64,000 nucleotides of DNA from an uncultured Solirubrobacterales bacterium (GCA_963798875.1 CAWCUT010000002.1:1-64000); one strand, 5' to 3'. Positions 5,400 through 26,631 are shown, numbered from the stretch's first letter. Translations and numbers: made by a program. The notes: a model not told the origin generated them from the sequence alone.

Positions 5400-5411
5400 A
5401 AAGGAGTTCAA

Positions 5412-7371: not shown

Positions 7372-7694
7372 CAGTCCTTCGCCTGGGCCCCGGGCGAGCC
7401 GTCCCGTCCATCCACCTCCTCGCCGCCCCGCAAGCCGTTGCCGCAGGCGGGCGACGCGGCCCCGCGCGGCACACCCCGCCGGCGAGCGGTTGACCGGAGC
7501 GGACTCGCATGCGAACCCACTGACGCTCCGGTGGGTTCGCAAACGGGCCTCCCCGGGTACCTTTGCCGCGTGTTCCGCCTCGTAACGCGCAAGCAGGACC
7601 GCTCGCAGGACTCCATTGCCTCGACGCCCGCGCCCGTGCAGGCCTTGTCGGACGCCGGGTTCGAGCGGCCGCTCGAGCGGGCCGGAGCAACGCT

Positions 7695-8636: not shown

Positions 8637-8666
8637 TAAGCAACCCCCGGCAAGCCGAAAGGAACC

Positions 8667-9113
8667 ATGCCCGAGTCAGTCAACGAGACCTGCGAGATCG
8701 ACGCCCCGCCAGAGGACGTGTGGGAGGTCCTGATGGATCCCGGCCGGCTCGGCGAGTGGGTCAGCGCCCACCGCAAGGTCGAGGACGTCCCCGAGCTGCC
8801 GCTCGGCGCCGGTGACAGGTTCCGCCAGCGGCTCGGCGTCGGGCCGGTCGGCTTCTGGGTCGAGTGGGAGATCGTCGAGGCCGAGCCGCCGTCGCTCGCG
8901 CGCTGGCGGGGCGAGGGGCCGGGCGGCTCGACCGCGAAGGTCAGCTACCGGCTCGCCGGCGACGGGGACGGCGGCACGCGCTTCGACTACGAGAACGACT
9001 TCGACCCGCCGGGCGGCCTGCTGGGCCAGGCGGCGAAGCGCGCGGTCAACGCCACGGCCGGCCACCGCGAGGCACGCAAGTCGCTGAAGGCGCTCGCCGG
9101 CCTGTTCGGCTGA
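8667..9113 (+). CDS. SRPBCC-superfamily protein (polyketide cyclase/dehydrase-like).
   Basis: 148-aa ORF with RBS AAAGGA. WEVLMDP...LGEWV...pattern typical of SRPBCC, CoxG or AHSA1-like proteins. Confidence 0.65.
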   Translation: MPESVNETCEIDAPPEDVWEVLMDPGRLGEWVSAHRKVEDVPELPLGAGDRFRQRLGVGPVGFWVEWEIVEAEPPSLARWRGEGPGGSTAKVSYRLAGDGDGGTRFDYENDFDPPGGLLGQAAKRAVNATAGHREARKSLKALAGLFG

Positions 9114-9119
9114 GGCTGC

Positions 9120-10106
9120 TCAGACGCCCGCGATCTCGGCGGGAGGCTGCGCCTGCGGGCGCCCGACGGGCTCGACGCTCTCCCCCGCCGGCTGGCGACG
9201 CGGCTCGAGCCGGCCGGCGGTGGCGACCGTCCACAGCGTCGCGACCCAGGTCAGCGTCGCGAGCCCGACGTGGAGCCAGACGATCTCGGCGGGCAGCTTC
9301 AGCCACCACTGGATGCCGCCAACCACCCCCTGGAGGACGAGCAGGCCGAGCACGAAGGTGAGTGGCCGGCGCGCCCGGTCGTCGGCGCCCCGGCGGCCGA
9401 GCAGGAACCAGACGGCGATCGCGCCGATGCCGAAGAGGGCGGCGATCAGCGAGTGGCGGGCGACGAGCCACTGCAACGTGTCGGAGCCCTCGAAGGTGAA
9501 GCGATGGACGAGCTGGCCCTCGTGCGCGCCGGCGTGCGGCCCCGCCGCGGTGCTCATCGTCCCGATCAGGATCGTCAGCTGGCCGAGCGGGATCAGCCCG
9601 CGGACCGCCCAGACGCCGAGCCGGTCGGAGGAGCGACGCCGGTCGTCGGGCTCGAAGCGGGAGAGCCAGACGAGCGCGAAGGCGGCGTCGAGCAGCATCA
9701 TCGAGAGGATGAAGTGGAGCATGACGAGGTCGGGCGCGAGGTCGAACTTGACGACGAGGGCGCCGAGCACGGCCTGGGCGATGACGCCGAGCGGCAGCAG
9801 CGCGCCGATCGCCGCCAGGTGCCAGCGGAAGGGACGGCGGAACCAGGCGAGTAGCGAGGCGGCGATCACGGCGAAGCCGACGAAGCCGGTGAGCAGCCGG
9901 TTGCCGTACTCGATCACCGCGTGGAGATCCGCCGGCGGCACGGCGCCGCCGTAGCACTTGGGCCAGTCCGGGCAGCCCAGGCCGGAGCCGGTGAGGCGCA
10001 CGGCCGCGCCCGTGAGCACGATCAGGACGAGCGCGCCGAGCGCGACCGAGGCGACGACGAAGTACGACTCCGGGCTGATCGAGAACTGGCGGATCCGCTG
10101 CAACAC
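9120..10106 (-). CDS. ctaA: Heme A synthase (COX15/CtaA).
   Basis: Polytopic membrane protein with the GCPDWPKCYG motif. 328 aa from a GTG start. Confidence 0.8.
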   Translation of the reverse strand: MLQRIRQFSISPESYFVVASVALGALVLIVLTGAAVRLTGSGLGCPDWPKCYGGAVPPADLHAVIEYGNRLLTGFVGFAVIAASLLAWFRRPFRWHLAAIGALLPLGVIAQAVLGALVVKFDLAPDLVMLHFILSMMLLDAAFALVWLSRFEPDDRRRSSDRLGVWAVRGLIPLGQLTILIGTMSTAAGPHAGAHEGQLVHRFTFEGSDTLQWLVARHSLIAALFGIGAIAVWFLLGRRGADDRARRPLTFVLGLLVLQGVVGGIQWWLKLPAEIVWLHVGLATLTWVATLWTVATAGRLEPRRQPAGESVEPVGRPQAQPPAEIAGV

Positions 10107-10198
10107 GACCGCCGTCAGGCTAGAGGAACCCAGCGCTCCGCTTCGTCGACGGAAGCCGCAATCAACTATCCGAACGAGGCTGCTGGTAGCTTGCGAAG

Positions 10199-11110
10199 AT
10201 GGTCTCCGAAGCCCTGAAGATCGCGGAGGAGGGTTCGCAGCTCGCCCGGGTCAACGGGATCGAGCTCTGCTACGACGAGTTCGGCGATCCGGAGGCGGAG
10301 ACGATCCTGCTGGTCATGGGGCTCGGCATGCAGATGCTCGCCTGGGACGCCGGAGTTCTGCGGGATGCTCGCCCAGCGAGGCTTCCACGTCGTCCGCTTC
10401 GACAACCGTGACGTCGGGCTCTCGACGAAGCTCGCCGGCCGCGTCAACATCCCGGCAGGGATGGTCGGGCTGACCGGTTCCGCCGTCTACACGCTCGACG
10501 ACATGGCCGCGGACACGCTCGGGCTGGTCGACCACCTCGAGCTCGATCGGGCCACCTGGTCGGCGTCTCGATGGGCGGCATGATCGGCCAGAAGGTCGCC
10601 GCGCACCTACCCCGACCGCGTCGCCAGCCTCTGCTCGATCATGTCGGGCACCGGGCGCCGGCGGATCTGGACGACGCCGCGGCTCGACGCCCTGCGGATG
10701 CTGATGCAGAAGCCGGCCCGCACGACCCGTGAGGCCTACATCGAGTCCGCGGCGACGATGTTCAGCGTCATCTCCTCGCCCGCCTATCCGCCCGAACCCG
10801 ACGCAGCTGCGCGAGCACGCCGGGCGCGCCTGGGACCGCTGCTTCTACCCGAGCGGCGTCGCCCGGCAGCTGATGGCCGTGCTGGCCTCGGGCGACCGCA
10901 CGCGCGAGCTGGCGAAGATCACCGCGCCGACGCTGGTGATCCACGGCCGCGAGGACCGGCTGATCCCGGTCCGCGCCGGGCGCAACACCGCCGCCGCGAT
11001 CCCGGCGCGCGAGCTCGAGCTGATCGACGGGATGGGCCACGACCTGCCGCCGGCCCTGTGGGAGCGGGTCGTCGAGCTGATCGTCCGCAACATCGGCCGG
11101 GCGCAGCCGG
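10199..11110 (+). pseudogene. Alpha/beta-hydrolase fold protein disrupted by at least 3 frameshifts.
   Basis: Pieces in three frames: GIELCYDEFGDPEAETILLVMGLG; HVVRFDNRDVGLS...[17 protein letters not shown]; [12 protein letters not shown]; TLVIHGREDRLIP...GMGHDLP. Together they make a complete alpha/beta hydrolase. Confidence 0.6.
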
Positions 11111-11143
11111 CGCCGAGCCGGCGCCGTCAGCGACTGACGGCGC

Positions 11144-13242
11144 TCAGCCGCCGGGCGCAGCCGCCTCGAAGGCGGCCGCGACGCCCTCGAGCAGGCGTCT
11201 CGGGCGTGAACGGCTTCTCGACGAAGCCCGCCTCGAGCTCACGGACGCCATCGCGCGAGATCGTGTCGCCCGTGTAGCCGGACATGAAGACGATGCCGAT
11301 CCCCGGATCGCAGCTCGCGCACGTCGGCGGGCGAGCTCGACTCCGGAGAGGCCCGGCATGACGATGTCGGTGAGCAGCACCGCGAAGCGCGATCTCCGCA
11401 GCGACGAGCAACTCGAGCGCCGCTCGGGCGCGGCCGCGACCTCGACGTCGTAGCCGCCCTCGACGAGCACCCGCTCGGTCAGCCGACGAACCATCGCGTC
11501 GTCCTCGACGAGCAGCACCCGGCGCGGCTGCTGCGTCGCCCTCGGCGGCGGGCGTCGCCGGCACCGCTGCATCGAGGCCGGCTGCAGCGACCTCGCTCGG
11601 CGACGGGCAGCAGGATGTCGACGTCCGTCCCGCCGCCCGGCTCGGAGGCGAGCTCGATCGAGCCGCCGAGGCCGGAGACGATCCCGTAGACGGTCGCCAG
11701 GCCGAGCCCGGAGCCCTCGCCGATCGGCTTCGTCGTGAAGAACGGCTCGAACGCCTTCTCCTGCACGGCTCGCGGCTCATGCCGACGCCGTCGTCGCTGA
11801 CCGTGAGCCGCACCCAGCGATAGCTCGGCGTCGCTGCGACCGGCGCGCTCGACGCTGATCCGGACCGTGCCGCCGTCCGGCATCGCGTCGCGGGCGTTGA
11901 CCGCGAGGTTGACGACGATCTGCTCGATCTGGCCGCGCGCCGGCCTCGATCGCGCGCAGGTCGCTCGCCAGTCGAGGTCTCGATCGAATAGCCCTCGCCG
12001 AGCGTGCGGCGCCAGCATGCGTTCGGCGCGCGGCGACCGCCTCGGCGACGTCGATCGGCTCGATCGCGACCACCTCCTGCCGCGAGAAGACGAGCAGCTG
12101 CCGGGTGAGCTCGGCGGCGCGGCGTCGCCGCCGCCTCGATCTCGTCGATCGACTCGCCTCGGACCGGCCCCGCCTGCGACGTGCTCGCGAGCGAAGGTCG
12201 CGTGGTTGAGGATGACGCCGAGCAGGTTGTTGAAGTCGTGGGCGATCCCACCGGTGAGCTGGCCCATCGCCTCGATCCGGCTGAGGCGCTGGAAGCGCGT
12301 CTCGAGGTCGCGCGCCCGCTCGCGCTCGTGCGCCGCCGCGAGCACGTGGCGAGGTCGCCTGCAGAAAGCCGACCTCGGCGACCGAGAAGTGCCGCTCGCC
12401 CCGGTGCGAAGGCGGCGAGCAGCGCCAGTCGGCCGGAAGGGGTCGCCGATCGCGACGCTGATCCCGTCCCGTGCGCCGCAGCGCGCGAAGAGCCCCTCGG
12501 GCGTCCAGCTCGGAGGGGTGTCCGTGATGACGACGCCGGTCCCGGTGCGCAGCAGCGCCGCTGCGTCGGTGCCCGCCAGCGGGATCCGCTCCGTCGGCCG
12601 CTCCTCCCCGCCCCAACCGCGACCGCCCTCGAAGCGCAGCACGCCGTTCTCGGCGTCGATGGCGAAGACGGCGACGAGCTCGATCGCCAACGATTCGGCG
12701 ACGATCTTCGCGGCCCGCGCGACGAGCTCGGTGCGCTCGATCCCGCCGATCGCCAGCGTGCCCAGCGCGGCCACGGGGCCGAGGCTGCTGGTCGCCGGCA
12801 GGTGCTCTCCGGGGGCACGGGCTGCCGAGGTGTCGAGGACGAGCGAACAGGTGCCCGCGATCGAGCCGTCGGGGCGGAAGTCGAGGCCCGAGCGAACCCG
12901 CGCCGGGAAGGTCGCGCCGTCCTTGCGCAGCAGCCGCAGGTCGTACTCGAGCGGCGTCTCGGGGATCCGCAACAGGGCCTCCCGGAGCCGTTGGGTGACG
13001 TCCGCCGTCGCGATCGGCAACTCCTCGGGCAGCCGCCCGATCGCCTGGGCCGCGGAGTAGCCAAACATCTCCTCAGCCGCCCCGCCCCATCCACTGATCA
13101 CCCGCGGCTCGCCGCTGAAGCGAATCAGCGCCACGCCAAGCGCCCGCAGCTGCGCCAGCACCACGGCCTCGCCCGCCGCGAAGGCAGCGTCGGGTCCCGC
13201 GCCAACCTGTCCCGACCCCCCGGGGTCCGCCCCATTGCTCAC
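11144..13242 (-). pseudogene. Hybrid sensor histidine kinase (PAS-HisKA-HATPase-REC) with multiple frameshifts.
   Basis: N-terminal PAS (LIRFSGEPRVISGWGGAAEEMFGYSAAQAIGRLPEEL). HisKA (GQLTGGIAHDFNNLL). HATPase (VNLAVNARDAMPDGGTVRI...GSGLGLATVYGIVSGLGGSIEL). C-terminal receiver (VLLVEDDAMVRRL...LLTDIVMPGLSG). Spread over at least 4 frames. Confidence 0.65.
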
Positions 13243-13454
13243 CTGTCGAGTCTCTACGACGTGTGCCCGCTGCGCAACCCCCCCGCTTAGGTGTACGGCG
13301 ATGGCCACCCGGACGCCATCGCCGCCATCGCCCGACCTGACGATGAGTCTTCCGGACTTCACCCCCTCCACGGTGGCAAAGCCCGGAGTGCTTCCGCCGG
13401 CCGTCGCCCGATTGGGCTGAAGTCGCGGGGATGACTCACTAGTAGCCTCGTCGC

Positions 13455-14294
13455 GTGCGGATCGGGATCGCAACCTGCGTGCACCCGCCGGCGCGGGACG
13501 AGGACATCGACTTCCTGCTGCCGGCGCTGCGCCGCCGGGGCGCCGAGGCCGAGGCGAAGCCCTGGAGCGATCCCGCGGTCGACTGGGCCGGCTACGACGT
13601 TGTCCTGATCAGCTCGACCTGGGACTACGACGAGCAGCTCGACGAGTTCCTCGCCTGGAGCAAGCGGGTCGGCGCGGCGACCGCGCTGCGCAACCCGGCC
13701 GCGACGGTCGCCTGGAACGTCGACAAGCGCTACCTGCGTGAGCTCGAGGCGGCCGGCGTCGCGACGATCCCGACGATCTGGACGGAGCCCGGTCAGGAGG
13801 AGGAGATCGAGCGCACCGTCGCCGAGCTTGGCTGGGGCGACGTGATCATCAAGCCCGTCGTCGACCTCGGCGCCCGGCGCCTGGCACGGGTCGAGACGCC
13901 GATGGTCGCCCGCATCCTCGAGGCGCTTGCGGCGCCGGGCATGGCGCAGCCCTTCCTGCGCCCCCTGCAGACCGAGGGTGAGCTCAGCCTCGTGTTCATC
14001 GGCGGCGAGCTGACCCACGCCGTCCGCAAGCGGCCCGCCCGCGGTGACTTCCGCGTCCAGCCGCAGTACGGGGGAACGGTCGAGCCGCTCGAGCCGCCGC
14101 CGGACGCGGTCGCGCTCGCCCGCGAGGCACTCGCCGCGGCACCGGGGGAGCCACTGTACGCACGCGCCGACTTGATCCGCGACGGCGACGGGAAGCTGCG
14201 CCTGATCGAGCTCGAGCTCATCGAGCCGGTCCTCTACTTGGGCTTCGCGCCGGCTGCCGCCGAGCGCCTCGCCCGGGCCCTGCTCGCAACCTGA
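13455..14294 (+). CDS. ATP-grasp domain protein (RimK/glutathione-synthetase-like). This is copy A of the duplicated unit.
   Basis: 279-aa intact ORF from a GTG start. ATP-grasp-like layout. Homologous to the truncated copy at 18590. Confidence 0.7.
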   Translation: MRIGIATCVHPPARDEDIDFLLPALRRRGAEAEAKPWSDPAVDWAGYDVVLISSTWDYDEQLDEFLAWSKRVGAATALRNPAATVAWNVDKRYLRELEAAGVATIPTIWTEPGQEEEIERTVAELGWGDVIIKPVVDLGARRLARVETPMVARILEALAAPGMAQPFLRPLQTEGELSLVFIGGELTHAVRKRPARGDFRVQPQYGGTVEPLEPPPDAVALAREALAAAPGEPLYARADLIRDGDGKLRLIELELIEPVLYLGFAPAAAERLARALLAT

Positions 14295-14773
14295 GCCCCA
14301 GGGCTCTCGTACAGATGTCGAGACGGCTTGCGGACGCTGATCGCGTGGCGCGGCGGCGCCGATGGTGAGGTCGCTGGGGGTCGTATCTGGGGACGCATCC
14401 CCGAGGAGACCTCATCAAGACGCATTCAGACATCGCAGGATCAGGGAGGGCGTGGATCGACGTCGCCGGCCGGTCTCGGGCGGGCAAACGCGCGGGCCTG
14501 GGCGGGCTGCCGGTCCGCGGACGTCCACTGCAGGGGAACGGGGCCGCCCGCCGCTGCGCACCGTTCCTCGCCGCGGCTGTCGCGGCGCTGGCGCTGACGG
14601 CAGCGAACGCCCCCGCCGACTCTGCCGACGAGCTCCTGGCCGCGACGATCGCCCTGCTCGGCGGCGCGCTGCTGGCCCGCTCACTGCCATGGCGGCGCCT
14701 GTCCGCGTCGGCGCAAGCGCTGCCGCCGCTCGCCTTCCTGGCAATCGTCGCGCTCGTCCGCGACGCGGAGGGA

Positions 14774-15511
14774 GTGGCCGTCGCAACGTTCACGCCGATG
14801 CTGGCGCTGCCCGTGATCTGGTTCGCCCTGTACGGCACGCGGACCGAGCTGGCCGTCTCGATCGGCCTCGCCGGCGCCGTCATCGCCGCGCCCGACCTGA
14901 TCGATCCGGACGGCGCGTCGCTGGAGCCGGCCGCCGCGGGCGTCTGGATCGTCGTCCTCGCGCTCGTCGGCTACGCGAGCTCGGCGATCGTCCGGGAGCG
15001 GGAACGCCTCCTCGACGAGGTCGGAAAGCTCGCCCGCACCGACCCGCTCACCGGGCTCGCCAACCGCCGCGGCTGGGGCGAGATGCTGCGCCGCGAGATC
15101 GCGCGCGCGGACCGCGACGAGGGACCGCTGTCGGTCGCGCTCGTCGACATCGACCGCTTCAAGGAGTTCAACGACCGCTACGGCCACGCCGCGGGCGACC
15201 GCCTGCTCAAGGAAGCCGCCTCGCGCTGGAGCTCGCAGATCCGCGAGATGGACCTGATCGCCAGGCACGGTGGAGAGGAGTTCGCGGTGCTGCTGCCGGG
15301 CGCCCGGGCAGCGGACGCGGCGTCCGTCGTCGAGCGCGTACGCAGCAGCGCTCCTGGAGGGATCACGATCTCGGGAGGCGTCGCGCAGCGTCAGCAGGGC
15401 GAAACCCCGGAGGCGCTCCTCGCCCGCGCCGACGCCGCCATGTACCAGGCCAAGCGCGAGGGCCGCGACGCGATCCGCGTCGCTCAGCGCTCGGCGACCA
15501 GCAACGTCTGA
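14774..15511 (+). CDS. GGDEF diguanylate cyclase with an N-terminal membrane domain (copy A). The membrane domain continues in-frame upstream to about 14400 with no canonical start.
   Basis: GGDEF core: RTDPLTGLANRRGWGE...VALVDIDRFKEFNDRYGHAAGDRLL...RHGGEEFAVLLPG. The upstream in-frame sequence encodes TM helices but lacks ATG, GTG or TTG back to a stop at 14366. The start is unresolved. Confidence 0.7.
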   Translation: MAVATFTPMLALPVIWFALYGTRTELAVSIGLAGAVIAAPDLIDPDGASLEPAAAGVWIVVLALVGYASSAIVRERERLLDEVGKLARTDPLTGLANRRGWGEMLRREIARADRDEGPLSVALVDIDRFKEFNDRYGHAAGDRLLKEAASRWSSQIREMDLIARHGGEEFAVLLPGARAADAASVVERVRSSAPGGITISGGVAQRQQGETPEALLARADAAMYQAKREGRDAIRVAQRSATSNV

Positions 15512-16316
15512 CAGGCGCGGCCGAGGGGGCCGCGCTCGTCGAGCAGCAGCGTGTCCGCCATGCCCTGCCCGTTCGGCTCGGGGATCGTGAGCGCGTCGAG
15601 GCAGACCCACTCCCCCGCCGGTAGCCGGTGCAGGTGGACGGTCAGGTCGACGTTGATGAACAGGTAGCGCTGAAAGTCGAGCGTCGAGCTGATTCCGTTG
15701 CCGGAGTCGGCGGCGACCATCACGCGCTGCAGCGACGTGGGCTCCTCCCCGGCGACGAGCGGGTGGCGCGAGCGCATCCAGCAGACGGCGGCGCCGGTCT
15801 CGAGGAAGCCGCCGCGCACGAACCGGTACTCCATCGCCGAGTGGTAGCCGACGGCCTCACCCGTCGGAAAGAAGACCTCGCTGGCCTCGAGCTCGCCGGG
15901 GGGCGGCGGCGGGCCCTGCTCGCCGCTCGGCCGCCCGGCGCGGGCGGGAGCCGAGCCCGGCCCACCGGCGCTCGCCAGCCCGTCGGGGTGCCGTCCTTGC
16001 GGACAAGGCGCACGTCGTGCTCGACCGGCGTCTCCGGCATCCGCAGCAGCGACTTCCGCACGCGCCGCGCCAGCAACGGGCTCGCGATCGGCAGCTCCTC
16101 CGGCCGGCAGCCGATCGCCTCCTCCGCGGTGAAGCCGAAGATCTCGGTCGCGGCCCCCTCCCAGGAGGTGATCCGGCGCTCGTCGCCGCTGAAGCGGATG
16201 AGGGCCGCGCCGAGCTGCAACAGGCGGGCGGTCACGGCGGCCTCTTCGGCCGCAGGCGCAGCCCCCGACTCCCCATCTGGCCTCCCCCAGCCAGCGGAAT
16301 CGCCGCCTGTGCTCAC
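15484..16316 (-). pseudogene. Chimeric remnant: a duplicated PAS-encoding 5' fragment of the sensor-kinase gene joined to the C-terminal half of a thioesterase-family gene (copy A).
   Basis: 15990-16316 encodes ALIRFSGDERRITSWEGAATEIFGFTAEEAIGCRPEELPIA..., about 75% nt identity to 12905-13242. 15484-15834 encodes MEYRFVRGGFLETGAAVCWMRSRHPLVAGEEP...HLHRLPAGEWVCLDA..., near-identical to 20037-20400. Confidence 0.5.
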
Positions 16317-16335
16317 AGGGAATTTGTACCGCTTC

Positions 16336-16770
16336 CTACGATTCCTGCCATGTGGCGCCGGCGCCTGATCGCGATTGCCGCCTGGGCGCCGGCGGTTGCG
16401 TGCCTCGGATTCGCCCTCCTGCGGGTGAGCGGAGCCGGGGGCGATCGCGGAGCTCGCGAGCTCCGACCCGGTCGCGTCGCGACGCCCGCGCTAACTCCGG
16501 CTCACCGGTTCTCGCGCCGCCAGAGAGGCGCAGGCCGGACCAGGTTACGTCGATCGCGCAGACCTTGTTGTCAACCAGGCCAAGTGGGAGCGCGAGCTCG
16601 CGGGGCACGTCCTCGGTGATGTCCGTGGCGACCCCGGAGGCCCGCTTCGGCCAGGCGACCCAGAGCCCGCCCGCGGGGTGGATCGCACCGCCGACCGGCT
16701 TGCGGCGGCGGCGTAGCTCGGCACGGCGCCGCCCGAACAGCGCGCCAACGTCCAGCGGGCCGCGTGCCAC
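16336..16770 (-). CDS. Hypothetical protein (possible gene remnant).
   Basis: GTG-initiated 144-aa ORF (WVARGPLDVGALFGRRRAEL...GGLWVAWPKRASGVATDITEDVP...). No confident family assignment. C-terminal third is low-complexity. Confidence 0.3.
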   Translation of the reverse strand: MARGPLDVGALFGRRRAELRRRRKPVGGAIHPAGGLWVAWPKRASGVATDITEDVPRELALPLGLVDNKVCAIDVTWSGLRLSGGARTGEPELARASRRDRVGARELRDRPRLRSPAGGRIRGTQPPAPRRQSRSGAGATWQES

Positions 16771-17049
16771 CCACTTCGTCGTGACGCCGTCGGGAAGCGG
16801 ACCGAGGCTCGCCGCGAAGCCGACCGGAGCGCCGGGCGTCGCCAGCGTCGAGCCGGACCAGATCCCGGCGTGCGGGGAGCGGAGTTAAGGGTGGCCGGCC
16901 GCGCCCACGTCGACGCGGTCGTCTCCATAAGAGTACGGCCGCCGCATGGCCTCACCAAGAAGAACGTATCGTGTTTCCCCATTGGCGAGATAACCAAATG
17001 AACTGCTATGTGACTTGACAAGCGGCCTCGGCTCGCCTACAAAACTCAT

Positions 17050-17580
17050 ATGGGCCCCGCTGGGAGAGGCCATGGTCGGAAGGGATACGCGGTCGTCGCG
17101 ACATCCTGGTTAGTTTGCGTGCTGCTGGTTGCTACCGATGCAGTGGGTCATACCCCCACTTCCCACGGCACAGCTTGGCAGGGGAAGGGAGGGTTCACAA
17201 CGTTGATTCCGCGATGCGTCAAGACTCTCTCCAGACTTGCTCATGGCACCCAGAATAAGGGCTTTGTTCGCACCACCACCGAGAGTTGGAAGAGCGCATT
17301 CAACGGCACTTGCAACTATACGAAGAACAAGGACAAGAACAAGATCGCTGCCAAATGGGATGTCTACCGGCGGTCAAAAGACGGCACATACAAGTACTGC
17401 GCGGGCTCCGCGTGGTATTACAATCCTAGTAGCACTTGGTCATATTCGGTGTACTACAACTTCCCAACCGTTCCGTGCAAGTGGGGTGCCTACCGGGCTA
17501 GGTCCTCCAGCTTCGTGAAACAGCACGGCAATTGGAAGGGTGGGTCGACGTGGTCCCCCCCACATTCATTCCCACCGTAG
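17050..17580 (+). CDS. Small secreted Cys/Trp/Tyr/Lys-rich protein encoded in a lower-GC island.
   Basis: N-terminal hydrophobic signal (AVVATSWLVCVLLVATDAVG). Mature region about 140 aa with 4 Cys, 7 Trp, many Tyr/Lys/Asn (…NGTCNYTKNKDKNK…YSVYYNFPTVPCKWGAY…). A/T-ending codons (aag, aac, tac) contrast sharply with the flanking genes. Confidence 0.55.
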   Translation: MGPAGRGHGRKGYAVVATSWLVCVLLVATDAVGHTPTSHGTAWQGKGGFTTLIPRCVKTLSRLAHGTQNKGFVRTTTESWKSAFNGTCNYTKNKDKNKIAAKWDVYRRSKDGTYKYCAGSAWYYNPSSTWSYSVYYNFPTVPCKWGAYRARSSSFVKQHGNWKGGSTWSPPHSFPP

Positions 17581-17586
17581 GCTGCG

Positions 17587-18018
17587 ATGATGCGTCTTCG
17601 ACCAATCCTCATTTCTATAGCGGCCATACTTCCGGTAGGGCTGGTAGTGCTGAGCGTAAGCCCGGCGTCCGACAGTCCGCGTGCCACGCATCCCGATACT
17701 GAGCTGACCGCAGCCTACGAGCCAGCGCTCCCGAAGGACGGCGACTTCGTACCAGTTGTGGGTCCGGACGGCAACGATGTTCGTTGTCCGAACGGCAAGC
17801 TCCTGAAGGTCGAGGTTGGGGGCCCGCCACCCGAAGTGTTCGTCGATCCCCCTCCCACCCAGCCAAGTGCTGCGCAACCGCCGGATGAGCCGCCTGCCGC
17901 TGGAGCCATCCTCGTACCAGCTGAACCGTTAGTTCCGATTTGCGGTGGGAAGGGAGGCACGGCGAACCCGCGATGGATTCCTCTCTCCCATCGTCACGCC
18001 GGAACGCAAGGTTCGTAG
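17587..18018 (+). CDS. Small secreted proline-rich protein (lower-GC island).
   Basis: Signal peptide MMRLRPILISIAAILPVGLVVLSVSPA. Pro-rich mature region (GGPPPEVFVDPPPTQPSAAQPPDEPPAAG) with 2 Cys. Confidence 0.45.
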   Translation: MMRLRPILISIAAILPVGLVVLSVSPASDSPRATHPDTELTAAYEPALPKDGDFVPVVGPDGNDVRCPNGKLLKVEVGGPPPEVFVDPPPTQPSAAQPPDEPPAAGAILVPAEPLVPICGGKGGTANPRWIPLSHRHAGTQGS

Positions 18019-18407
18019 CCGTCGCACTGGCTGCGGCCATGCTGGCAACTGGACTCAGTTCCCCGGGTTGTGGTGGCGGCACGGAACCAACAGCCGGCCC
18101 CGGCCCCGGCAGTGGCTCCCCCGTCAGTCTCGAGCGCGCAACGGAAATCGTCGAGAGGCGAGGCACCGAGATCCAGATGGCATATGACGGCGCCAGGACT
18201 GTGTCCCCGGCGCCTGCCAGCGGGGCGGGACCAAGAGATGCGGACGCGACTGAGGGGTTGTTCGTGATCAGGGTCTTGCTTGCGAGCGGCTCGAGGCAGC
18301 CGGCGAGGGAGCAGTCAGTCGACGGTGTGCCAATTGAGTTCCACGTACTTTCGCCGGGCGTGAGCGAATCGGCCCCTCCGCTGAATAGTGAGGGCGGTAA
18401 CCCGTAG
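17973..18407 (+). CDS. Small secreted protein or possible lipoprotein (lower-GC island).
   Basis: MDSSLPSSRRNARFVAVALAAAMLATGLSSPGCGG signal with a Cys shortly after the h-region. The ORF track start (17940) overlaps the preceding gene, so the internal ATG at 17973 is preferred. Confidence 0.4.
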   Translation: MDSSLPSSRRNARFVAVALAAAMLATGLSSPGCGGGTEPTAGPGPGSGSPVSLERATEIVERRGTEIQMAYDGARTVSPAPASGAGPRDADATEGLFVIRVLLASGSRQPAREQSVDGVPIEFHVLSPGVSESAPPLNSEGGNP

Positions 18408-18500
18408 CCATCAGGCGCCGAGTTGGCGCTGGCCGCCGAGTAGCTCGTTGACCCGGGTCAGGCCCGAGAGGCCCGGCGCTACGGCGCTGCCCGCGATAGC

Positions 18501-18526
18501 GTCCACGCCACACGTGTGGCGCGGAC
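18501..18526. repeat. 26-bp near-perfect palindrome carrying the recurring ACGTGTGGCGCG motif.
   Basis: gtccacgccacac|gtgtggcgcggac (one mismatch), immediately upstream of duplicated copy B. Confidence 0.5.
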
Positions 18527-18589
18527 GTGGCTTCAGATCTGACCGAGCCCACGGACGCGTCCACCCGTCGACCACTAGTCTCCCGCCGC

Positions 18590-19000
18590 GTGCGGATCGG
18601 GATCGCGACCTGCTCCCGCCCGCCGGCGCGGGACGAGGACATCGACTTCCTGCTGCCGGCGTTGCGGCGGCGGGGCGCCGAGGCCGAGGCCGCAGCCTGG
18701 ACCGACGCGAAGACCGATGGTCCGCCTTCGACACCGTCCTGATCAGCTCGACTTGGGACTACGACGAGCGCCTCGACGAGTTCCGTGCCTGGACCGACCG
18801 CACGGGCGGCGAAACGAAGCTGCTGAACCCTCCGGCGACCGTGGCCTGGAACCTCGACAAGCGCTACCTGCGCGAGCTCGAGGCAGCCGGCGTGGCGACG
18901 ATCCCTGCCGATGGTGCTCCGCTGGGGGTCGTATCCGGGGGATCGAACCCGGAGGGAGACCTCATCAACACCGACACAGACATGGCAAGCGCAGGGAGGC
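18590..19000 (+). pseudogene. Truncated, frameshifted ATP-grasp gene (copy B of the duplicated unit).
   Basis: Starts VRIGIATCSRPPARDEDIDFLLPALRRRGAEAEA... (about 85-90% nt identity to 13455 onward). Contains a frameshift. An internal deletion of about 0.5 kb removes the C-terminal half relative to copy A. Confidence 0.55.
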
Positions 19001-20030
19001 CGCCGATCGGCGGTCACGAGATCGACTACAGCCGCGGCAGGCGCGCTCCGGCCGCGATCCCAGAGCGAGGCCGGCCGCTCGAGGGGCGCGGCGCCTGGCG
19101 CCGCTGCGCGCCCTTCCTCGGGGCGCGGTGGCGGCGCTGTTGCTGAGCGCGTTCGTTGGGCCCGCGGCGCTGAGCGGCGCACAGCTCGTGCGGGCGCTGG
19201 CGGCGGTCGTCGGCGGCACCGTTGTCTCCCTGCTCGTCCCCTGGCAGCGACTGCCGGCGGCGGCGCAGGCGCTGCCGCCACTGCTCTTCCTCGTCTTCGT
19301 GGCGCTCGTCCGCAACGCGGAGGGAACCCCGGTGACGACGTTCACGCCGATGCTGGCGCTGCCGGTGATCTGGTTCGCCCTGTACGGGACCCAGCTCGAG
19401 CTCGGGGCCGGGATCGCCGCAGCGGGACTCGTGATCGCGCTGCCGCCGGTGCTGGATCCGGACGGCACGCTGAGCCGGGAGCTGCCCGCGGCCGGCATCT
19501 GGCTCGTCGTGCTGCTCCTCGCCGGCTACGCGACCTCGGCGCTCGTCCGCGAGCGCGAGCGGCTGCTGGGAGAGGTCGCGAAGCTGGCCCGCACCGACCC
19601 GCTCACGGGCCTCGCCAACCGCCGCGGCTGGGGCGAGCTGCTGCGGCGCGAGATCGCACGGGGCGAGCGCAGCGGCGCCCCGCTCTCGGTGGCGCTCGTC
19701 GACATCGACCGGTTCAAGGACTTCAACGACCGCTACAGGCACGGCGGGGGACCGGCTGCTGAAGGAGGCGGCCTCGCGCTGGAGCGCCCACGTCCGCGAC
19801 GATCGATGTGATCGCGCGGCACGGGGGTGAGGAGTTCGCGGTGCTGCTGCCAGGCGCGGGAGGCAGCGACGCGGTGGCCGTCGTCGAACGCATGCGGGCT
19901 GTCGCCCCCCGGGCATCACCTTCTCCGCCGGCATCGCAGAGTGGCGGCCGGGCGAGAGCCCTGACGCGCTGCTCGGGCGCGCGGACGCGGCCATGTATAG
20001 GGCCAAGCGCGAGGGCCGCGACGCTGTCCG
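18983..20030 (+). pseudogene. GGDEF diguanylate cyclase, copy B, with at least 3 frameshifts.
   Basis: ATG at 18983 (where copy A has ATC). TM region, then RTDPLTGLANRRGWGELLRRE...VALVDIDRFKDFNDRY, then a frameshift, then IARHGGEEFAVLLPG, then a frameshift, then GITFSAGIAEW...AMYRAKREGRD. About 70-85% aa identity to copy A. Confidence 0.6.
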
Positions 20031-20036
20031 GCTCGC

Positions 20037-20763
20037 TCAGCGCTCCGCGACGAGCAGCGTCTGACAGGCGCGGCCGAGCGGGCCGCGCTCGTCGAGCAGC
20101 AGCGTGTCCGCCATGCCCTGCCCGTTCGGCTCGGGGATCGTGAGCGCGTCGAGGCAGACCCACTCCCCCGCCGGCAGCCGGTGCAGGTGGACGGTCAGAT
20201 CGACGTTGATGAACAGGTAGCGCTGGAAGTCGAGCGTCGAGCTGATTCCGTTGCCGGAGTCGGCGGCGACCATCACGCGCTGCAGCGGCGTCGGGCTCCT
20301 CCCCGGCGACGAGCGGGTGGCGCATGCGCATCCAGCAGACGGCGGCGCCGGTCTCGAGGAAGCCGCCGCGCACGAACCGGTACTCCATCGCCGAGTGGTA
20401 GCCGACGTCCTCGCCGGTCGGAAAGAAGACCTCGCTGGCCTCGAGCTCGCCGGGGGCGGCGGCGGGCCCTGCTCGCCGCTCGGCCGCCCGGCGCGGGCGG
20501 GCGCCGAGCCCGGCCCATCGGCGCTCGCCAGCCCGTCGGGGATCGCCGGCGCCGATGCGGCCAGGCGCCAGGCCCGGGCCCGGATCAGCTCGCCGCCGCT
20601 CGCCGCTCGCCTCGCTCAGCGTCGCCTCGAGCAGCTCGACGCGGCGGCCGGCGCGAACCGTCGCCACGTCGACCCGCAGCTCGGCGATCGGCACCGGGCG
20701 CAGGATCTCGAACGTGATCCGGCCGACCGAGCGATCGCCGGGGCCGGCGCCGATCCCCGGCAT
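20037..20763 (-). pseudogene. Thioesterase-family (TesB/4HBT-like) protein, copy B. Full length but frameshifted.
   Basis: N-terminal GRITFEILRPVPIAELRVDVATVRAGRRVELLEA. C-terminal EYRFVRGGFLETGAAVCWMRMRHP...DFQRYLFINVDLTVHLHRLPAGEWVCLDA.... Pieces lie in at least 2 frames. Confidence 0.55.
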
Positions 20764-21099
20764 GCTGCTCGAGCGCGCGGGCGAGCAGGGCCGCGGGCGG
20801 GCCGGCGTGCTGGCTGGCGGCGTCCCAGGGGCCGCGGGTGAGCTCGGTCGAGCGAAAGGTCCGCCGCCCCCCGGCTCAGCGGCCGAGGGGCTCGAAGAAG
20901 CTCGAGGGCGAGCCGCTCAAGCGCGGGTCCGGGGATCGTGGACCATCCACGGGCGGCAGGCTACCCTCGGCACCCTGGCCGGGCTTGCAGCTCGCGAATC
21001 GCGTACCGTGCATGGGTCTCCTCAGGAGCGGCACGTTCAGGGGCCGGTAAGCGCCAGGACCTAGATTCCTGCTGAGATCCACGTCCCACAGGAGGAACC

Positions 21100-21518
21100 A
21101 TGGAAAAGGTTCAGAAGACGAGACCGCGAATGGCGCGAGCAGCTCTCCGATGAGGCAGTTCGAGGTGACCCGCAAGGCCGGGACCGAGCGCGCCTTCACC
21201 GGCCGCTACTGGGACGAGCAGGCCGACGGGACCTACCGTTGCGTGTGCTGCGGCCAGGAGCTGTTCGACTCCGAGACGAAGTTCGACTCCGGCACCGGCT
21301 GGCCGAGCTTCTACGAGCCGGCCGCCGACGCGCGGTCGAGACGAAGTCCGACAACAGCCTCTTCATGCGCCGCACCGAGGTGCTCTGCAGCCGCTGCGAC
21401 GCCCACCTCGGGCCACGTCTTCGAGGACGGCCCGGAGCCGACCGGGCAGCGCTTCTGCATCAACTCAGCCGCGCTCTCGCTGGATCAGCCGAGCGACGAG
21501 CCGGCACCAGACTCCTAA
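21100..21518 (+). CDS. msrB: Peptide-methionine (R)-S-oxide reductase MsrB, with about 4 apparent frameshifts.
   Basis: RBS AGGAGGA then ATG. Fragments [77 protein letters not shown] and [21 protein letters not shown] are distributed over three frames. Confidence 0.7.
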
Positions 21519-21721
21519 GACCAGGAGAGGGTTCGCAGCGACGGCGTGGGAACGGCACGCCGTCGCTCGGTCCTGCGCGGACGGCGGCGCGAGGGCCCGC
21601 TGCTCGGCGTCCTCGTCGGCTCACGTGCTGGCGCACGCTTCGCCTCCTGCGTCCTTGATCAGCGAGCCCTCGCACTCGCCGCCGGTATCCCTCTTTGGAT
21701 TTCTCCGGTTAGGCTCATCTC

Positions 21722-22214
21722 GTGGAGATCTTCGGGCTCGACGCCTGGCTCGTCTGGTTTCTGATCGGCATGGGGCTGCTGATCGTCGAGGTGGCGATCG
21801 CGTTCACGTTCTACGCGGCGCCGATCGCGCTCGGCGCGTTCGGGGCGGCGATCGTCGCGGCGCTCGGCGGCGGGATCGAGCTGCAGCTCGTCGCCTTCAT
21901 CATCGGCTCGCTGCTCTCGCTCGCCTTCCTGCGGCCGCTCGTCGCGCCAGCACCTGCAGCCGCCCGACGCGGAGAAGGCCTCGAACGTGCAGAGCCTGAT
22001 CGGGCGCCGGGCGGTGGCGCTGCAACGGGTCGACGTCGACTCAGGCACGGTCCGGCTCGGCGACGACGTCTGGTCGGCGCGGACACCGATCCGAGGATCT
22101 CGTGATCGAGGAGGGCGCGCGCGTCGAGGTCGTCGACATCCGCGGCGTCTACGCCTACGTAGAGCCGATGCCCATGCAACCGTCCGAGCCGGCCGCGGCC
22201 GGCGGGGAGGAGTG
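21722..22214 (+). CDS. NfeD-like membrane protein (partner of the SPFH protein), frameshifted.
   Basis: N-terminal TM helices (MEIFGLDAWLVWFLIGMGLLIVEVAIAF...). C-terminal OB-fold-like (GRRAVALQRVDVDSGTVRLGDDVWSART...VEVVDIRGVYAYVEP). At least 2 frame changes. Confidence 0.55.
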
Positions 22215-22219
22215 AACAG

Positions 22220-23200
22220 ATGACCCCGTTCCCGCAACCGTGCCGCTCGCGGCCGTCAACGGCGGTCGCGATCGCGCTCGCCGCGCTCGCGATCTTCGTG
22301 CTCGATCACGCTCGCCGCCGCCGTCAAGATCGTGCCGCAGGCGCGCGCCGGGGTGGTCGAGCGGCTCGGCCGCTACCAGCGCACGCTGCAGCCGGGCCTG
22401 GCCCTGCTGATCCCGTTCGTCGACCGCGTGCTGCCGCAGATCGATCTGCGCGAGCAGGTCGTCACCTTCCCGCCTCAGGCCGTGATCACCGAGGACAACG
22501 TCAACGTCAACATCGACACCGTCGTCTACTACACGATCATCGACCCGAAGGCCGTGACTTACGAGGTCGCCCAGCCGATCCGCGCGATCGAGCAGCTGAC
22601 GATCACGACGCTGCGCAACGTGATCGGCTCGCTCGACCTCGAGGAGGCGCTGACCAGCCGCGACTCGATCAACGCACCAGCTGCGCACGGTGCTGGACGA
22701 GGCGACCGGCAAGTGGGGAATCCGCGTCAACCGGATCGAGCTCAAGGCGATCGACCCGCCGCCGACGATCCAGGAGGCGATGGAGAAGCAGATGCGGGCC
22801 GAGCGCGACAAGCGCGCCGCGATCCTCAACGCCAGGGCGCGAAGGAGTCCTCGATCCTCGTCGCCGACGGCGAGAAGCAGTCGGCCGTGCTGCGCGCAGA
22901 GGGCGCCAAGGAGGCGGCGATCCTCGACGCCCAGGGCGACCGCGAGGCGCAGGCGCTGCGGGCGGAGGGCGAGGCGATGGGCATCAAGACCGTCTTCGAC
23001 AGCCTGCACAAGGGCGAGGTCGACGAGGGCATCCTCACCTACCTCTACCTGGAGATGCTGCCCCAGCTCGCCGCCGGGCGAGGCGAACAAGCTGTTCCTG
23101 ATCCCGCAGGAGATCACCGAGGCGCTGGGCACGGCTCGGCAAGAGTCGATCGGCGACGCGCTGCCGAAGCCGCCCAAGCGCGCGCGAGGCCGCCGGCTCG
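22220..23200 (+). CDS. SPFH/band-7 (stomatin/HflC-like) protein with at least 4 apparent frameshifts.
   Basis: Segments [35 protein letters not shown]...[50 protein letters not shown] and [31 protein letters not shown]... lie in alternating frames. The 3' end is approximate. Confidence 0.6.
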
Positions 23201-23279
23201 GACATCGACGAGGCGAGCCGTCGCCGCGCGCGCGGCATCGACTCCTCAGACCGTCGAGCCGCCGCCGCGACTGTCGACC

Positions 23280-24600
23280 TCCGCATGTGCGGGAAACGGC
23301 ACGCTAGGCGCGACGAGCCGCCGAGCTCGGCGGGGCGCCGCGCTCGACGAGGACCGTGCGGGACGGCGACCGAGCCGTCGGCGCGCTGGTGGTTCTCGAT
23401 GATCGCGATCAGCGTGCGGCCGACGGCGACGGCCGTGCCGTTCAGCGTGTTGACGGGCTCCGGCGAGGCGCCCTCCGCCGCGCGGAAGCGGCAGTTGAGG
23501 CGGCGCGCCTGGTAGTCGGTCGTGTTCGAGGTCGAGGTCAGCTCGCGGTAGCGCTCCTGGCTCGGGATCCACGCCTCGCAGTCGAACTTGCGGGCGGCGG
23601 GCGCGCCGAGGTCACCGACGGCGATGTCGACGACGCGGTAGGGGATCTCGAGCGCCCGCAGGATCTGCTCCTCGATCGCGAGCAGGCGCTGGTGCTCGGC
23701 CTCGGCCTCCTCGGGCCGGACGAAGCTGAACATCTCGACCTTGTCGAACTGGTGCACGCGGAAGATCCCGCGCGTGTCCTTGCCGGCGGCGCCGGCCTCG
23801 CGGCGGAAGCAGGTCGAGATGCCGGCGTAGCGGATCGGCGAGCGTCGGCGCCGTCGAGGATCTCGTCGGCGTGCAGGGCGGCGAGCGAGACCTCGGAGGT
23901 GCCGACGAGGAAGAGCTCGTCCTTGGGGACCTCGTAGATCATCTCGCGCTCGCCCGGGAAGAAGCCGGTCCCGTACAGCGGCGTCCTCGCGGACGAGGAC
24001 CGGCGGCACGACCGGGTACGAAGCCCTGCGCGCTCGGTCACCTCGACGGCGAAGCGGATCAGCGCCAGCTCGACGAGGACGAGGTCGCCCGATCAGGTAG
24101 GCGAAGCGCGAGCCGGAGGCCTCCGCCGCCTTCTCGGTCTCGATCAGGCCGAGCGCCCGGCCGATCTCGAGGTGGTCGCGGACCTCGAAGTCGAACGCGG
24201 GCCGCTCGCCGACCTCGCGCAGCACGACCGCGTCCTCGTCGGTGTCGCCGTCGGGCGCGTCGGGATGCGGGCGGGTTGGGAAGCGTCGCCGCGAGCCGGT
24301 CGCGCTCGGACTCGACCTCCGCGAGCTCGCCCTCGAGCTCCTTGATCCGCGCCGAGACCTCGCGCATCGCCGCGATCGCCTCGTCCGCGTCGCGGCCCTC
24401 GCGCTTGGCGAGGCCGATCGCGTCGGAGGCCTCGTTGCGCTCGGCCCGCAGCCCCTCGACCTCGGGCAAGCAGCTCACGGCGGCGGGCGTCGAGGCGGAG
24501 CAGCTCGTCGAGGTCGGCGTCGGCGCCGATCCGGGCGAGGGCGGCGCGTGCCGGCGCGGGGTCGTCGCGGATCCGCTTCAGGTCGAGCAGGGTCGCCCCC
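23280..24600 (-). CDS. serS: Seryl-tRNA synthetase, with at least 4 apparent frameshifts. Boundaries are approximate.
   Basis: N-terminal coiled coil ([21 protein letters not shown]...[19 protein letters not shown]). Class II core ([83 protein letters not shown]). Pieces are in several frames and no clean ATG start is found. Confidence 0.65.
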
Positions 24601-24605
24601 GCCGC

Positions 24606-25068
24606 TCAACCGTTGGAGTCGTAGTTCGCCGTCGGGGCGTTGCCGGGCTTGGAGTCCTCCTGCTGCTGCAGGGACTCGTCCTGGTTCGGCGACGGCCGCG
24701 GCGGAATCGACCGCCTGCGTGCCGGAGTAGTCGGCGATGAACTTGGCGACCCGCTTCGCGTCCTCGCCGACGACGATGTTCTGGGGCATGATCGAGCCGG
24801 AGATGCCGCCGTTCTCGATCGCGTACAGCGCGTGCGCGTAGTCGACCTTGCGCTGGTCGAGGTTCGGGCCCTGCTGGCGCAGCGTCCTGTTGCCCGAGCC
24901 CTGCGTGCCGGCGGCGTCCAGCGTGTGGCAGCCGCCGCAGCGCTGGGAGAAGATCGTGGCGGCCGCATAATCGGGGTCATTGGCGGCCACGCTGACGCCT
25001 TCGCTGCCGCAGGCAGCGACGCCGAGGGCGCAGAGCGCGAGTGCGATCAGTACGTAAAGGGGCCGCAC
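24606..25068 (-). CDS. Class I c-type cytochrome lipoprotein; C-terminal frameshift.
   Basis: Lipobox LGVAACGS. Heme-binding CGGCH. Met ligand region GSIMPQN. The tail continues in another frame (…ADYSGTQAVDSAAAVAEP then …QQEDSKPGNAPTANYDSNG). Confidence 0.6.
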
Positions 25069-25098
25069 GCGGGCGGCATCATACTTCGGACGCCCCCG

Positions 25099-25599
25099 AT
25101 GTCCGCCGCAGACCCGACCACCCCCGAGATCGACCCCGGCGAGCTCCGCGCCGCCATGTCGCGCTTCCCGACCGGAGTCACCGTCGTCACGGCGCCGACG
25201 GCCGACGGCCCGGCCGGGCTGGCTGCCAACGCCGTCACCTCGCTTTCACTCGAGCCGCCGCTGATGCTCGCCTGCCTCGACCGCGGCTCGCGCACGCTGC
25301 GCGCCGTCGAGGCGGCAGGCCGCTTCGGCGTCAACGTCCTCGGCGCCGAGGGCGAGGAGCTCGCCCGGGCCTTCGGCCGCAAGATCCCGATGGCGGAGAA
25401 GTGGGAAGGCGTCGGCCACTCCGACAGAGACGGCCTGCCGCGCCTCGACGCCGCGATCGTCTTCATCGCCTGCACGATGCGCGACGTGCTCGCCGGCGGC
25501 GACCACGTGATCGTCACCGGCGCGGTCGACTCGATCGCCGAGCGCGACGGTAGTCCGCTGCTGTTCGTCGACGGCGCCTACAGGCCCGCTTCCGGCTGA
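25099..25599 (+). CDS. Flavin reductase (FMN-binding split-barrel, HpaC-like).
   Basis: FPTGVTVVT...GLAANAVTSLSLEPPLMLACL...GDHVIVTGAV pattern. ATG at 25099 is the first sensible start inside the longer track ORF. Confidence 0.7.
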   Translation: MSAADPTTPEIDPGELRAAMSRFPTGVTVVTAPTADGPAGLAANAVTSLSLEPPLMLACLDRGSRTLRAVEAAGRFGVNVLGAEGEELARAFGRKIPMAEKWEGVGHSDRDGLPRLDAAIVFIACTMRDVLAGGDHVIVTGAVDSIAERDGSPLLFVDGAYRPASG

Positions 25600-26063: not shown

Positions 26064-26123
26064 CTCCTCTCGAACGAGAGTAGCGCCGCGGCGGCAATGG
26101 TCAAGCCGCGAGAGGAGCTACAT

Positions 26124-26603: not shown

Positions 26604-26631
26604 GCCCGCAGGAAGGATCGGCCGGCAGCAA

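Follow-up and report, generated by a model that had tools for sequence, protein, structure and literature searches.

Introduction

Homology-facilitated illegitimate recombination (HFIR) is known from transformable Acinetobacter, Streptococcus pneumoniae, and Pseudomonas stutzeri and also occurs, at low frequency, in Escherichia coli conjugation (PMC3240628; references in PMC5361080). Integration with one homologous and one illegitimate end is experimentally documented, as is the duplication of a homologous segment on integration (PMC3240628; PMC5361080). A one-anchor mechanism has also been proposed for arrays of orphan immunity genes and Rhs ends (PMC5361080). Two reports on interspecies transformation of Bacillus subtilis state that a sequence divergence of up to ~23% still permits recombination (PMC6382021) and that transformants frequently have multiple discontinuous donor segments lying near one another (PMC13344027). 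Here, we analyzed 64,000 nucleotides from an uncultured Solirubrobacterales bacterium (GCA_963798875.1, CAWCUT010000002.1:1-64000; hereafter the window), in which a locus encoding a hybrid histidine kinase, an ATP-grasp protein, a GGDEF-domain diguanylate cyclase, and a thioesterase is present as two head-to-tail units, A and B.

An earlier interpretation made from this DNA alone (the sequence-only reading) took the two units for an ancient segmental duplication with one decaying copy. Comparison with related loci showed that unit B is a mosaic of two ancestries with two breakpoints, that the two copies of a thioesterase half are sisters, and that three genes are truncated. We consider it probable, with moderate confidence, that an allele of the locus from another Solirubrobacterales clade, represented by the relative L002, was integrated beside the resident one by one homologous crossover and one out-of-register illegitimate join.

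Results

Self-similarity of the window

For this region, a repeat search and gapped self-BLAST of the 64-kb window gave three collinear long self-matches and no others. These joined A 13437-13771 with B 18573-18905 (83% identity), A 14358-15988 with B 18907-20541 (81.5%, 38 gap columns), and 12916-13179 with 15990-16253 (70%, ungapped). Self-alignment therefore bore out the extended similarity between two blocks that the sequence-only reading had described. The overall identity was ~82% rather than the 85-90% it had given, and block B ended at 20541 rather than at 20770, positions 20542-20920 being the single-copy 5' half of the thioesterase gene. The A-B identity in the second match was uneven, at 57-85% on the left and 97-98% over the last ~460 bp. 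A global MAFFT alignment of the two units was discarded, as it was misled by the large indels; piecewise BLAST and a five-way alignment with the insert of unit B removed were used instead.

The third match lies in the 5' part of the kinase gene and, at the protein level, reaches the GTG starts at 13242 and 16316. A paralogous copy of the kinase 5' end had been proposed at ~75% identity; the copy is present, and its nucleotide identity over 12916-13179 is 70%. With a spacing of 3074 nt, these direct repeats bracket unit A head to tail as proposed, so that the repeat unit comprises 12916-15989 (3074 bp) and its end meets its start at one novel junction. From start to start, the kinase 5' repeat is spaced by 3074 and the other two families by 5134-5135 and 4550-4555; 5134-5135 equals 3074 plus ~2060, and 4550-4555 equals 3074 plus ~2060 minus ~581. 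All three spacings thus fit one head-to-tail unit whose second copy has an extra ~2.06 kb and lacks 586 bp. The missing 586 bp correspond to A 13772-14357, which has no counterpart in unit B, where 18905 and 18907 are adjacent; a deletion of ~0.5 kb in the ATP-grasp gene of unit B had been predicted. Small indels specific to unit B were one-nucleotide deletions at 18717, 19124, and 19909, a two-nucleotide deletion at 19743, and a one-nucleotide insertion at 19800, of which those at 19124, 19743, 19800, and 19909 confirm the predicted indels in its GGDEF gene.

Ancestry of the two units

Relatives were collected by scanning GTDB species representatives with the ATP-grasp protein of unit A (ATP-grasp-A), and 80 loci were fetched; the scan places the window in Solirubrobacterales. 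The core conserved across this order consists of an alpha/beta-hydrolase, a DcsG-like ATP-grasp protein, and the thioesterase. In comparison with loci L004-L021, only the window and three loci from Solirubrobacterales metagenome-assembled genomes (MAGs), L001, L003, and L002, have the hybrid kinase and GGDEF genes flanking the ATP-grasp gene. Each of these three has one kinase-ATP-grasp-GGDEF-thioesterase locus, and none of the first 45 fetched loci tabulated carries two ATP-grasp copies. Unit A and both flanks are 91-95% identical to L001/L003, which we call the native type. Identity to L001/L003 is 91-94% for the left flank and 91-95% for the right flank, compared with 72-75% and 79-89%, respectively, to L002, and L001/L003 diverge from L002 by ~20-25% in this region.

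The ancestry of unit B was followed in an alignment of five sequences without the insert, using a 200-nt sliding window. From 15990 to ~20060, unit B is 87-96% identical to L002 and 57-85% identical to unit A, L001, and L003, and bin by bin its distance from unit A equals that between L001 and L002. From ~20025 rightwards, it is 95-97% identical to unit A and L003 and 76-90% identical to L002. We defined informative sites as those where L001 equals L003 but L002 differs. With few exceptions, the state of unit B at these sites is that of L002 between the first tens of bases beyond the junction and 19983; a short mosaic follows at 19985-20085, and past it the state is native. The two units are therefore each other's closest relatives only over the last ~460 bp; elsewhere, unit B groups with L002 and unit A with L001/L003.

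Distances to L002 were then compared with those of the neighboring genes. Third-codon-position distances were computed for the left, L002-type part of unit B (B-left), for unit A, and for twelve flank genes. B-left showed 15-18% (15.5%), unit A 21-39%, and the flank genes 16-32% with a weighted mean of ~24%. The overall nucleotide distance to L002 was 8% for B-left versus ~18% for the flanks. The inserted segment is thus nearer to another lineage than to the resident copy and the flanks, as judged from one donor-clade reference. When branch-specific substitutions were counted with the native clade as outgroup, unit B had 49 and L002 had 52. Those of unit B were split by codon position as 8/8/33, and those in its kinase fragment as 2/3/8. 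Substitutions in unit B are therefore unaccelerated and biased to third positions, indicating that B-left, including the now dead kinase fragment, evolved as working genes until recently.

The sequence-only reading had attributed the divergence to ancient paralogues drifting apart in place. This view did not hold: the relatives are single-copy, unit B is of the L002 type from 15990 to ~20060 and native thereafter, and only ~460 bp form a sister duplicate. The A-B divergence would accordingly be divergence between lineages, imported by recombination, and not time since duplication. An ancient in situ tandem duplication would have to predate the split of the L003 and L002 clades, with reciprocal collapse in the relatives (A-type in L001/L003, B-type in L002), retention of both copies here, and recent conversion of the thioesterase 3' halves. 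The geometry is exactly that of a head-to-tail duplication of 12916-15989, and the distance of unit A from L002 within the unit (25-30%) exceeds that of the flanks, as for old paralogues. The 97% block could stem from a conversion tract delimited by the junction and by declining similarity, and the 15.5% third-position distance of B-left overlaps the lowest flank genes (16-17%). However, such a history needs at least two precise independent losses plus conversion, versus one event for the integration of a foreign allele, and the dead kinase and thioesterase fragments must have persisted while the lineages diverged by ~20%. Furthermore, by both distance measures, B-left lies roughly half as far from L002 as the flanks do on average, and the branch of unit B is no longer than that of L002 and third-position-biased even in the kinase fragment, which was non-functional once the junction had formed. 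Taken together, we regard an ancient duplication as unlikely.

Junction, crossover zone, and the two thioesterase halves

At the left end of unit B, the native thioesterase sequence ...CCCGTCGGGG is followed by a single T and then by the L002-type kinase sequence GCCGTCCTTGCGGAC... (junction 15988/15990). This junction joins the 3' half of the thioesterase gene to codon ~109 of the second kinase 5' fragment, consistent with the earlier proposal that the 5' half of the thioesterase gene of unit A (thioesterase-A) was replaced by a kinase 5' fragment. The parental sequences share no homology at this out-of-register join, with at most 1-3 nt being ambiguous, as judged against the window, L001, L002, and L003. 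The first difference between unit B and the native kinase appears 13 nt past the junction. A two-step model of native duplication followed by allele replacement was rejected, as its left crossover would have to fall within these 13 nt. At the right end, L002-type sites give way to native ones in a crossover zone at 19985-20085, which contains a small native-type mosaic patch and is centered on a 28-bp convergent overlap of the GGDEF and thioesterase stop codons. This stretch is the best conserved between the clades (~89-91% identical). A second short donor tract at 21164-21185 was considered and was not significant.

The donor segment is flanked by a ~460-bp duplicate (15530-15988 and 20085-20541) that is 97% identical. 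We compared the thioesterase halves over 431 aligned sites, A 15558-15988 versus B 20111-20541. Seven sites showed a derived state common to A and B and absent from L003 and L001, whereas 10 were A-only, none B-only, 6 L003-only, and 27 L001-only. The seven common derived sites indicate that the halves are sisters, formed here after the split from L003 and L001. They differ at ~12 of the 431 sites, and all 10 polarized differences fall on the truncated copy, indicating that thioesterase-A evolves faster. Five of these 10 changes are at first or second codon positions (tally from listed sites), as expected of a dead fragment. Thioesterase-A carries the L002 state at only 2 of the 11 sites where it differs from the thioesterase of unit B (thioesterase-B) and L003.

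These flanking copies bear on a Campbell-type integration, in which a donor fragment circularized by end-joining of its thioesterase and kinase ends entered by a single crossover and the left thioesterase was later converted to the native type. A homologous segment duplicated on both sides of an insert, as at 15530-15988 and 20085-20541, is the signature of a single crossover, and this was the commonest outcome in E. coli experiments, where duplications ranged from 109 to 950 bp (PMC3240628) compared with ~460 bp here. However, a crossover at ~15530 predicts donor-type sequence up to 15988 in thioesterase-A, where the segment is instead native. Neither the seven derived sites common with thioesterase-B nor the mere 2 of 11 differing sites that match L002 fit this prediction, and the flanking copies are not reciprocal hybrids. 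As thioesterase-A is native up to the junction, the model needs an extra, complete conversion step, and we consider it quite unlikely.

Under the preferred explanation, integration of an L002-clade allele, the resident locus would originally have been arranged as kinase(-)/ATP-grasp(+)/GGDEF(+)/thioesterase(-), as in the single-copy relatives. A DNA fragment with the homologous locus of a different, L002-related species would have integrated adjoining it. Its right end would have recombined homologously with the chromosome in the conserved convergent GGDEF/thioesterase 3' ends (19985-20085), and an illegitimate join would have linked its left end, in the donor kinase PAS-coding region, to the resident thioesterase gene at 15988, a site ~460 bp downstream of the crossover. 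With the illegitimate joint lying beyond the crossover, ~460 bp of native thioesterase are present twice with the donor segment between them, which mimics a 3074-bp tandem duplication. The event may have been a single step of the HFIR type, proceeding via a replicated or sister copy or via synthesis primed from the invading end. It presupposes some route of DNA entry into the cell; the 2.1-kb DUF3052/low-GC segment and the 586-bp deletion of unit B may have originated either in the donor or after integration.

Several observations weigh against this explanation. L002, at ~92% identity, is the sole donor-clade reference. The third-position distance of B-left is the lowest of the 13 comparisons with the flank genes, but two of those genes are at 16-17%, so distance alone is compatible with vertical descent. 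Recipient DNA is duplicated (15530-15988 is present twice), whereas classical HFIR deletes it between the joints; a sister copy or primed synthesis is therefore needed. The DNA comes from a metagenome-assembled long-read contig with a locally poor consensus adjoining the block. A 26-mer spanning the junction was not found in JGI metagenome contigs, and thus no independent assembly with the junction was obtained from them. The chimeric kinase/thioesterase open reading frame (ORF) likewise had no protein-database homologue at E<=1e-5, indicating that the database searched lacks close relatives.

Small indels and the possibility of an assembly artefact

Frameshifting indels that set the window apart from both L001 and L003 number 61 (46 insertions and 15 deletions). 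About 55 specific 1-bp indels lie in neighboring native genes, in two tracts flanking the recombinant block, one of 2.2 kb on its left (10175-12421) and one of 4.6 kb on its right (20293-24900). Their density is ~1 per 130 bp, insertions exceed deletions 3:1, and most are outside homopolymers. They break the hydrolase gene, the 3' two-thirds of the native kinase gene, thioesterase-B, and right-flank genes. Unit A has only a handful, in non-coding or gene-start positions (13322, 13449, 14301, and 14398). Of the more distant stretches examined, 7500-10000 has no more than one per 500-nt bin, 4000-6000 and 24500-26500 have none, and 26500-28000 has three. The indel tracts show no excess of window-specific substitutions, and thioesterase-B has no unique substitution yet two unique indels in 431 bp. 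Pseudogene decay was rejected as the main reading of the flank indels on these grounds, and from the sequence pattern they are most likely consensus errors. That the indels are real, a scar of highly error-prone repair or recombination-associated synthesis accompanying the integration of the foreign allele, appears highly improbable; if true, the tracts would be the trace that break-associated mutagenesis has left in nature around a joint of horizontal transfer. Split frames were also seen in the reference MAG loci, namely, in the kinase gene of L001 (5070-7144), the hydrolase gene of L002 (6407-7211), and the GGDEF N-terminus of L003 (~11000-11230), indicating that frameshifts are general in these assemblies.

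The sequence-only reading had held that the A-B divergence rules out an assembly artefact. This inference is invalid, as the relevant artefact would be a chimeric join. Reads of an L003-like and an L002-like Solirubrobacterales species occurring together would have been placed one after the other in a long-read metagenome contig, creating a false tandem. In favor of such an artefact, the window comes from a single contig of 707,633 bp in a public assembly, and its relatives are Nanopore soil MAGs that were polished with one round of Medaka and that have numerous related bins in each sample (PMC12313526). The donor-to-native switch falls in a conserved stretch where an assembler could switch too, and dense 1-bp indels without extra substitutions beside the block suggest a heterogeneous or poorly polished pile-up. 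In contrast, the join at 15988/15990 is out of register and without homology and is therefore not an overlap-driven mis-join, and it is extremely unlikely that a chimeric read would by chance connect two species within the same 5-kb locus. Unit B also has its own 586-bp deletion and extra 2.1 kb, both absent at this position from L002, the sole donor-clade genome compared. Moreover, the thioesterase halves differ 10:0 on the truncated copy, which fits relaxed selection on a real fragment and not two samplings of a gene or of strains. Because of the out-of-register junction without homology and the asymmetric divergence of the thioesterase halves, a chimeric join is disfavored, and we judge it very unlikely.

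Coding content of units A and B

Gene calls rest on the frame analysis of GC content at third codon positions (GC3) and on Pfam, and frames were compared with the relatives by tblastn. The gene identities proposed earlier were supported by Pfam matches to GSH-S_ATP for ATP-grasp, GGDEF, 4HBT_3C (A) and 4HBT_3 (B) for the thioesterases, and PAS plus HATPase_c for the kinase.

The native hybrid histidine kinase gene (11177-13242, minus strand) starts at GTG 13242; Pfam PAS and HATPase_c were found in the window ORF, and PAS-GAF-HisKA-HATPase_c-REC in the intact L003 orthologue. Its 5' 327 bp (12916-13242) form the left end of repeat unit A, and its 3' two-thirds contain many 1-bp indels as assembled. 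ATP-grasp-A (13455-14294, plus strand) is an intact, DcsG-like protein of 279 aa with Pfam GSH-S_ATP, in a single frame with a GC3 of 0.93, and it is 95% identical in amino acids to L001/L003. It scored 201.7 bits against NF058666, under the NCBIfam cut-off of 360, and was therefore not named DcsG. In exact-protein look-ups, neither ATP-grasp-A nor the ORF of the low-GC island had an entry in the positional index. GGDEF-A (14362-15511, plus strand) encodes a diguanylate cyclase (Pfam GGDEF, 6.4e-40) with a hydrophobic N-terminal region, a GGEEF motif, and 94% amino-acid identity to L003. The open frame extends from 14369; in the assembly, two 1-bp homopolymer differences put the conserved ATG at 14362 out of frame. 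They were identified by eye on comparing the window sequence with the L003 translation; the alignment lists one, at 14398. The earlier description of copy A as intact thus applies to ATP-grasp-A, whereas GGDEF-A has an open frame and the GGEEF motif but, in this assembly, an out-of-frame conserved start. Thioesterase-A (15484-15988, minus strand) is the C-terminal hotdog half only (Pfam 4HBT_3C, 3.9e-23), cut off at the junction. It is of the native type, with 94.6% amino-acid identity in one frame to residues 127-293 of the L003 thioesterase.

Unit B begins with the second kinase 5' fragment and its upstream DNA (15990-16443, minus strand), which is of the L002 type and has a GTG at 16316 and 109 codons encoding PAS. 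The fragment reads out of frame into thioesterase-A. It is 88.9% identical to L002 in nucleotides without gaps and 85.5% in amino acids, versus 70% in nucleotides to the native kinase. ATP-grasp-B (18590-18905, plus strand), also L002-type, comprises the first ~105 codons only, followed by the 586-bp deletion (761 bp relative to L002) that took the rest of the gene and the spacer before GGDEF. GGDEF-B (18983-20064, plus strand) is L002-type and keeps its ATG. Its central 206 codons are 97% identical to L002, its specific substitutions at codon positions 1/2/3 number 5/4/19, and the frame of these central codons is shifted as assembled by four small indels summing to -3; going by this pattern, GGDEF-B may be intact in reality. 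Thioesterase-B (20037-20920, minus strand; Pfam 4HBT_3) is native-type and full length, with both hotdog halves, and has six 1-bp indels as assembled.

Three genes are structurally truncated, namely, the kinase fragment (109 codons), thioesterase-A (C-terminal half), and ATP-grasp-B (~105 codons). The claim that the second copy is being pseudogenised therefore holds for its structural truncations. It does not extend to the 1-bp frameshifts, which cannot safely be taken as signs of decay, given that the block is flanked by dense indels without extra substitutions, ~55 of them in neighboring native genes.

The segment inserted in unit B

The insert at 16444-18555 has no counterpart in any of the 80 fetched loci. 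It contains the low-GC island that had been placed between the copies, and which lies inside unit B; at ~16750-18000, the GC content is 55-64% compared with a background of 73%. A remnant of a DUF3052-family gene (16525-16866, minus strand) covers residues 16-129 of ~136, lacking a start as well as a proper end. By tblastn, it shares 75% identity with homologues from Solirubrobacterales; the family name is the one given by the sources of homologous proteins. It is the only DUF3052 sequence in the window, and it is absent at this position in L001, L002, and L003. By composition and translations, a low-GC cluster (~56-66% GC) of three small ORFs follows at 17050-17580, 17587-18018, and 17940-18407, all on the plus strand, with N-termini that appear signal- or lipoprotein-like by eye. 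None of the three matched Pfam or NCBIfam at curated cut-offs; one sub-threshold NCBIfam match, NF058595, was obtained for 17940-18407. The first ORF (17050-17580) has 68 remote homologues at E<=1e-3. These belong to an uncharacterized family of mostly 110-300 aa, with most members of ~165 aa; the region also occurs in a few proteins of ~700-1100 aa, at the C-terminal end in two of them.

A mobile-element origin of the 2.1-kb insert was rejected. The insert has no terminal direct or inverted repeats and no plasmid or phage similarity beyond the DUF3052 part, and no transposase or integrase family was found among the ORFs scanned against Pfam or NCBIfam. In 15800-19000, Rfam and tRNA scans found nothing, and a promoter/terminator scan performed no better than on shuffled sequences. 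A near-perfect palindrome of 28 bp (93%; GTCCACGCCACACGTGTGGCGCGGAC) lies at 18500-18527, ~60 bp upstream of ATP-grasp-B, and is absent at the equivalent position of L002. Where unit B has the insert, L002 carries a different 404-bp segment (9564-9968), which by eye resembles an endonuclease/exonuclease/phosphatase-type C-terminal end and matches no Pfam family. These different segments indicate that the spacer between the kinase and ATP-grasp genes is a variable spot in this clade. Elsewhere in the window, a weaker second direct repeat joins 58855-59461 with 60025-60651 (same strand, 66% over ~630 bp).

Discussion

The kind of event proposed here is already known, and the locus represents no new kind of system; its interest is modest and mainly methodological. 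It would be a clean natural case in which recombination between related soil species adds a foreign allele beside the resident one, resembling an old gene duplication. The divergence of paralogues is accordingly not readable as age without checking relatives, and caution is needed with pseudogene calls from 1-bp frameshifts in long-read MAG contigs. The locus also provides indirect evidence for chromosomal DNA exchange between uncultured Solirubrobacterales lineages that are ~20% diverged.

Ordinary tandem segmental duplication through unequal or illegitimate sister-chromosome exchange likewise yields a head-to-tail unit with a novel junction, and the ~460-bp segment is a true in-lineage duplicate. 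However, ~85% of the alignable unit here does not consist of closest relatives, and the identity is bimodal (57-85% versus 97%). The mosaics of Bacillus subtilis described in the reports cited above resemble the small native-type patch inside the crossover zone; those are in-register replacements, whereas the event here is additive and out of register. In the arrays of orphan immunity genes and of Rhs and contact-dependent inhibition (CDI) 3' ends, as in the type VI secretion system of Vibrio cholerae (PMC5361080), which arise as alleles displace one another in succession, an incoming allele of the locus likewise stands beside the resident one instead of cleanly replacing it, with truncated or orphaned remnants in series. 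Those arrays consist of toxin/immunity modules under strong diversifying selection and recur often, whereas a signaling/biosynthetic cluster is affected here, once, with no evident selective rationale.

HFIR is matched by the anchor in the conserved GGDEF/thioesterase 3' region and by the illegitimate joint at 15988/15990. The segment, as interpreted here, is of foreign ancestry and has a homologous and an illegitimate end. In classical products, the recipient DNA between the joints is lost, whereas ~460 bp of it were duplicated here. Because this recipient segment is present twice, the locus is best described as an HFIR-like variant and not as a textbook product. It further differs in that the foreign DNA represents the corresponding locus from a related species, and the product therefore mimics a tandem duplication.

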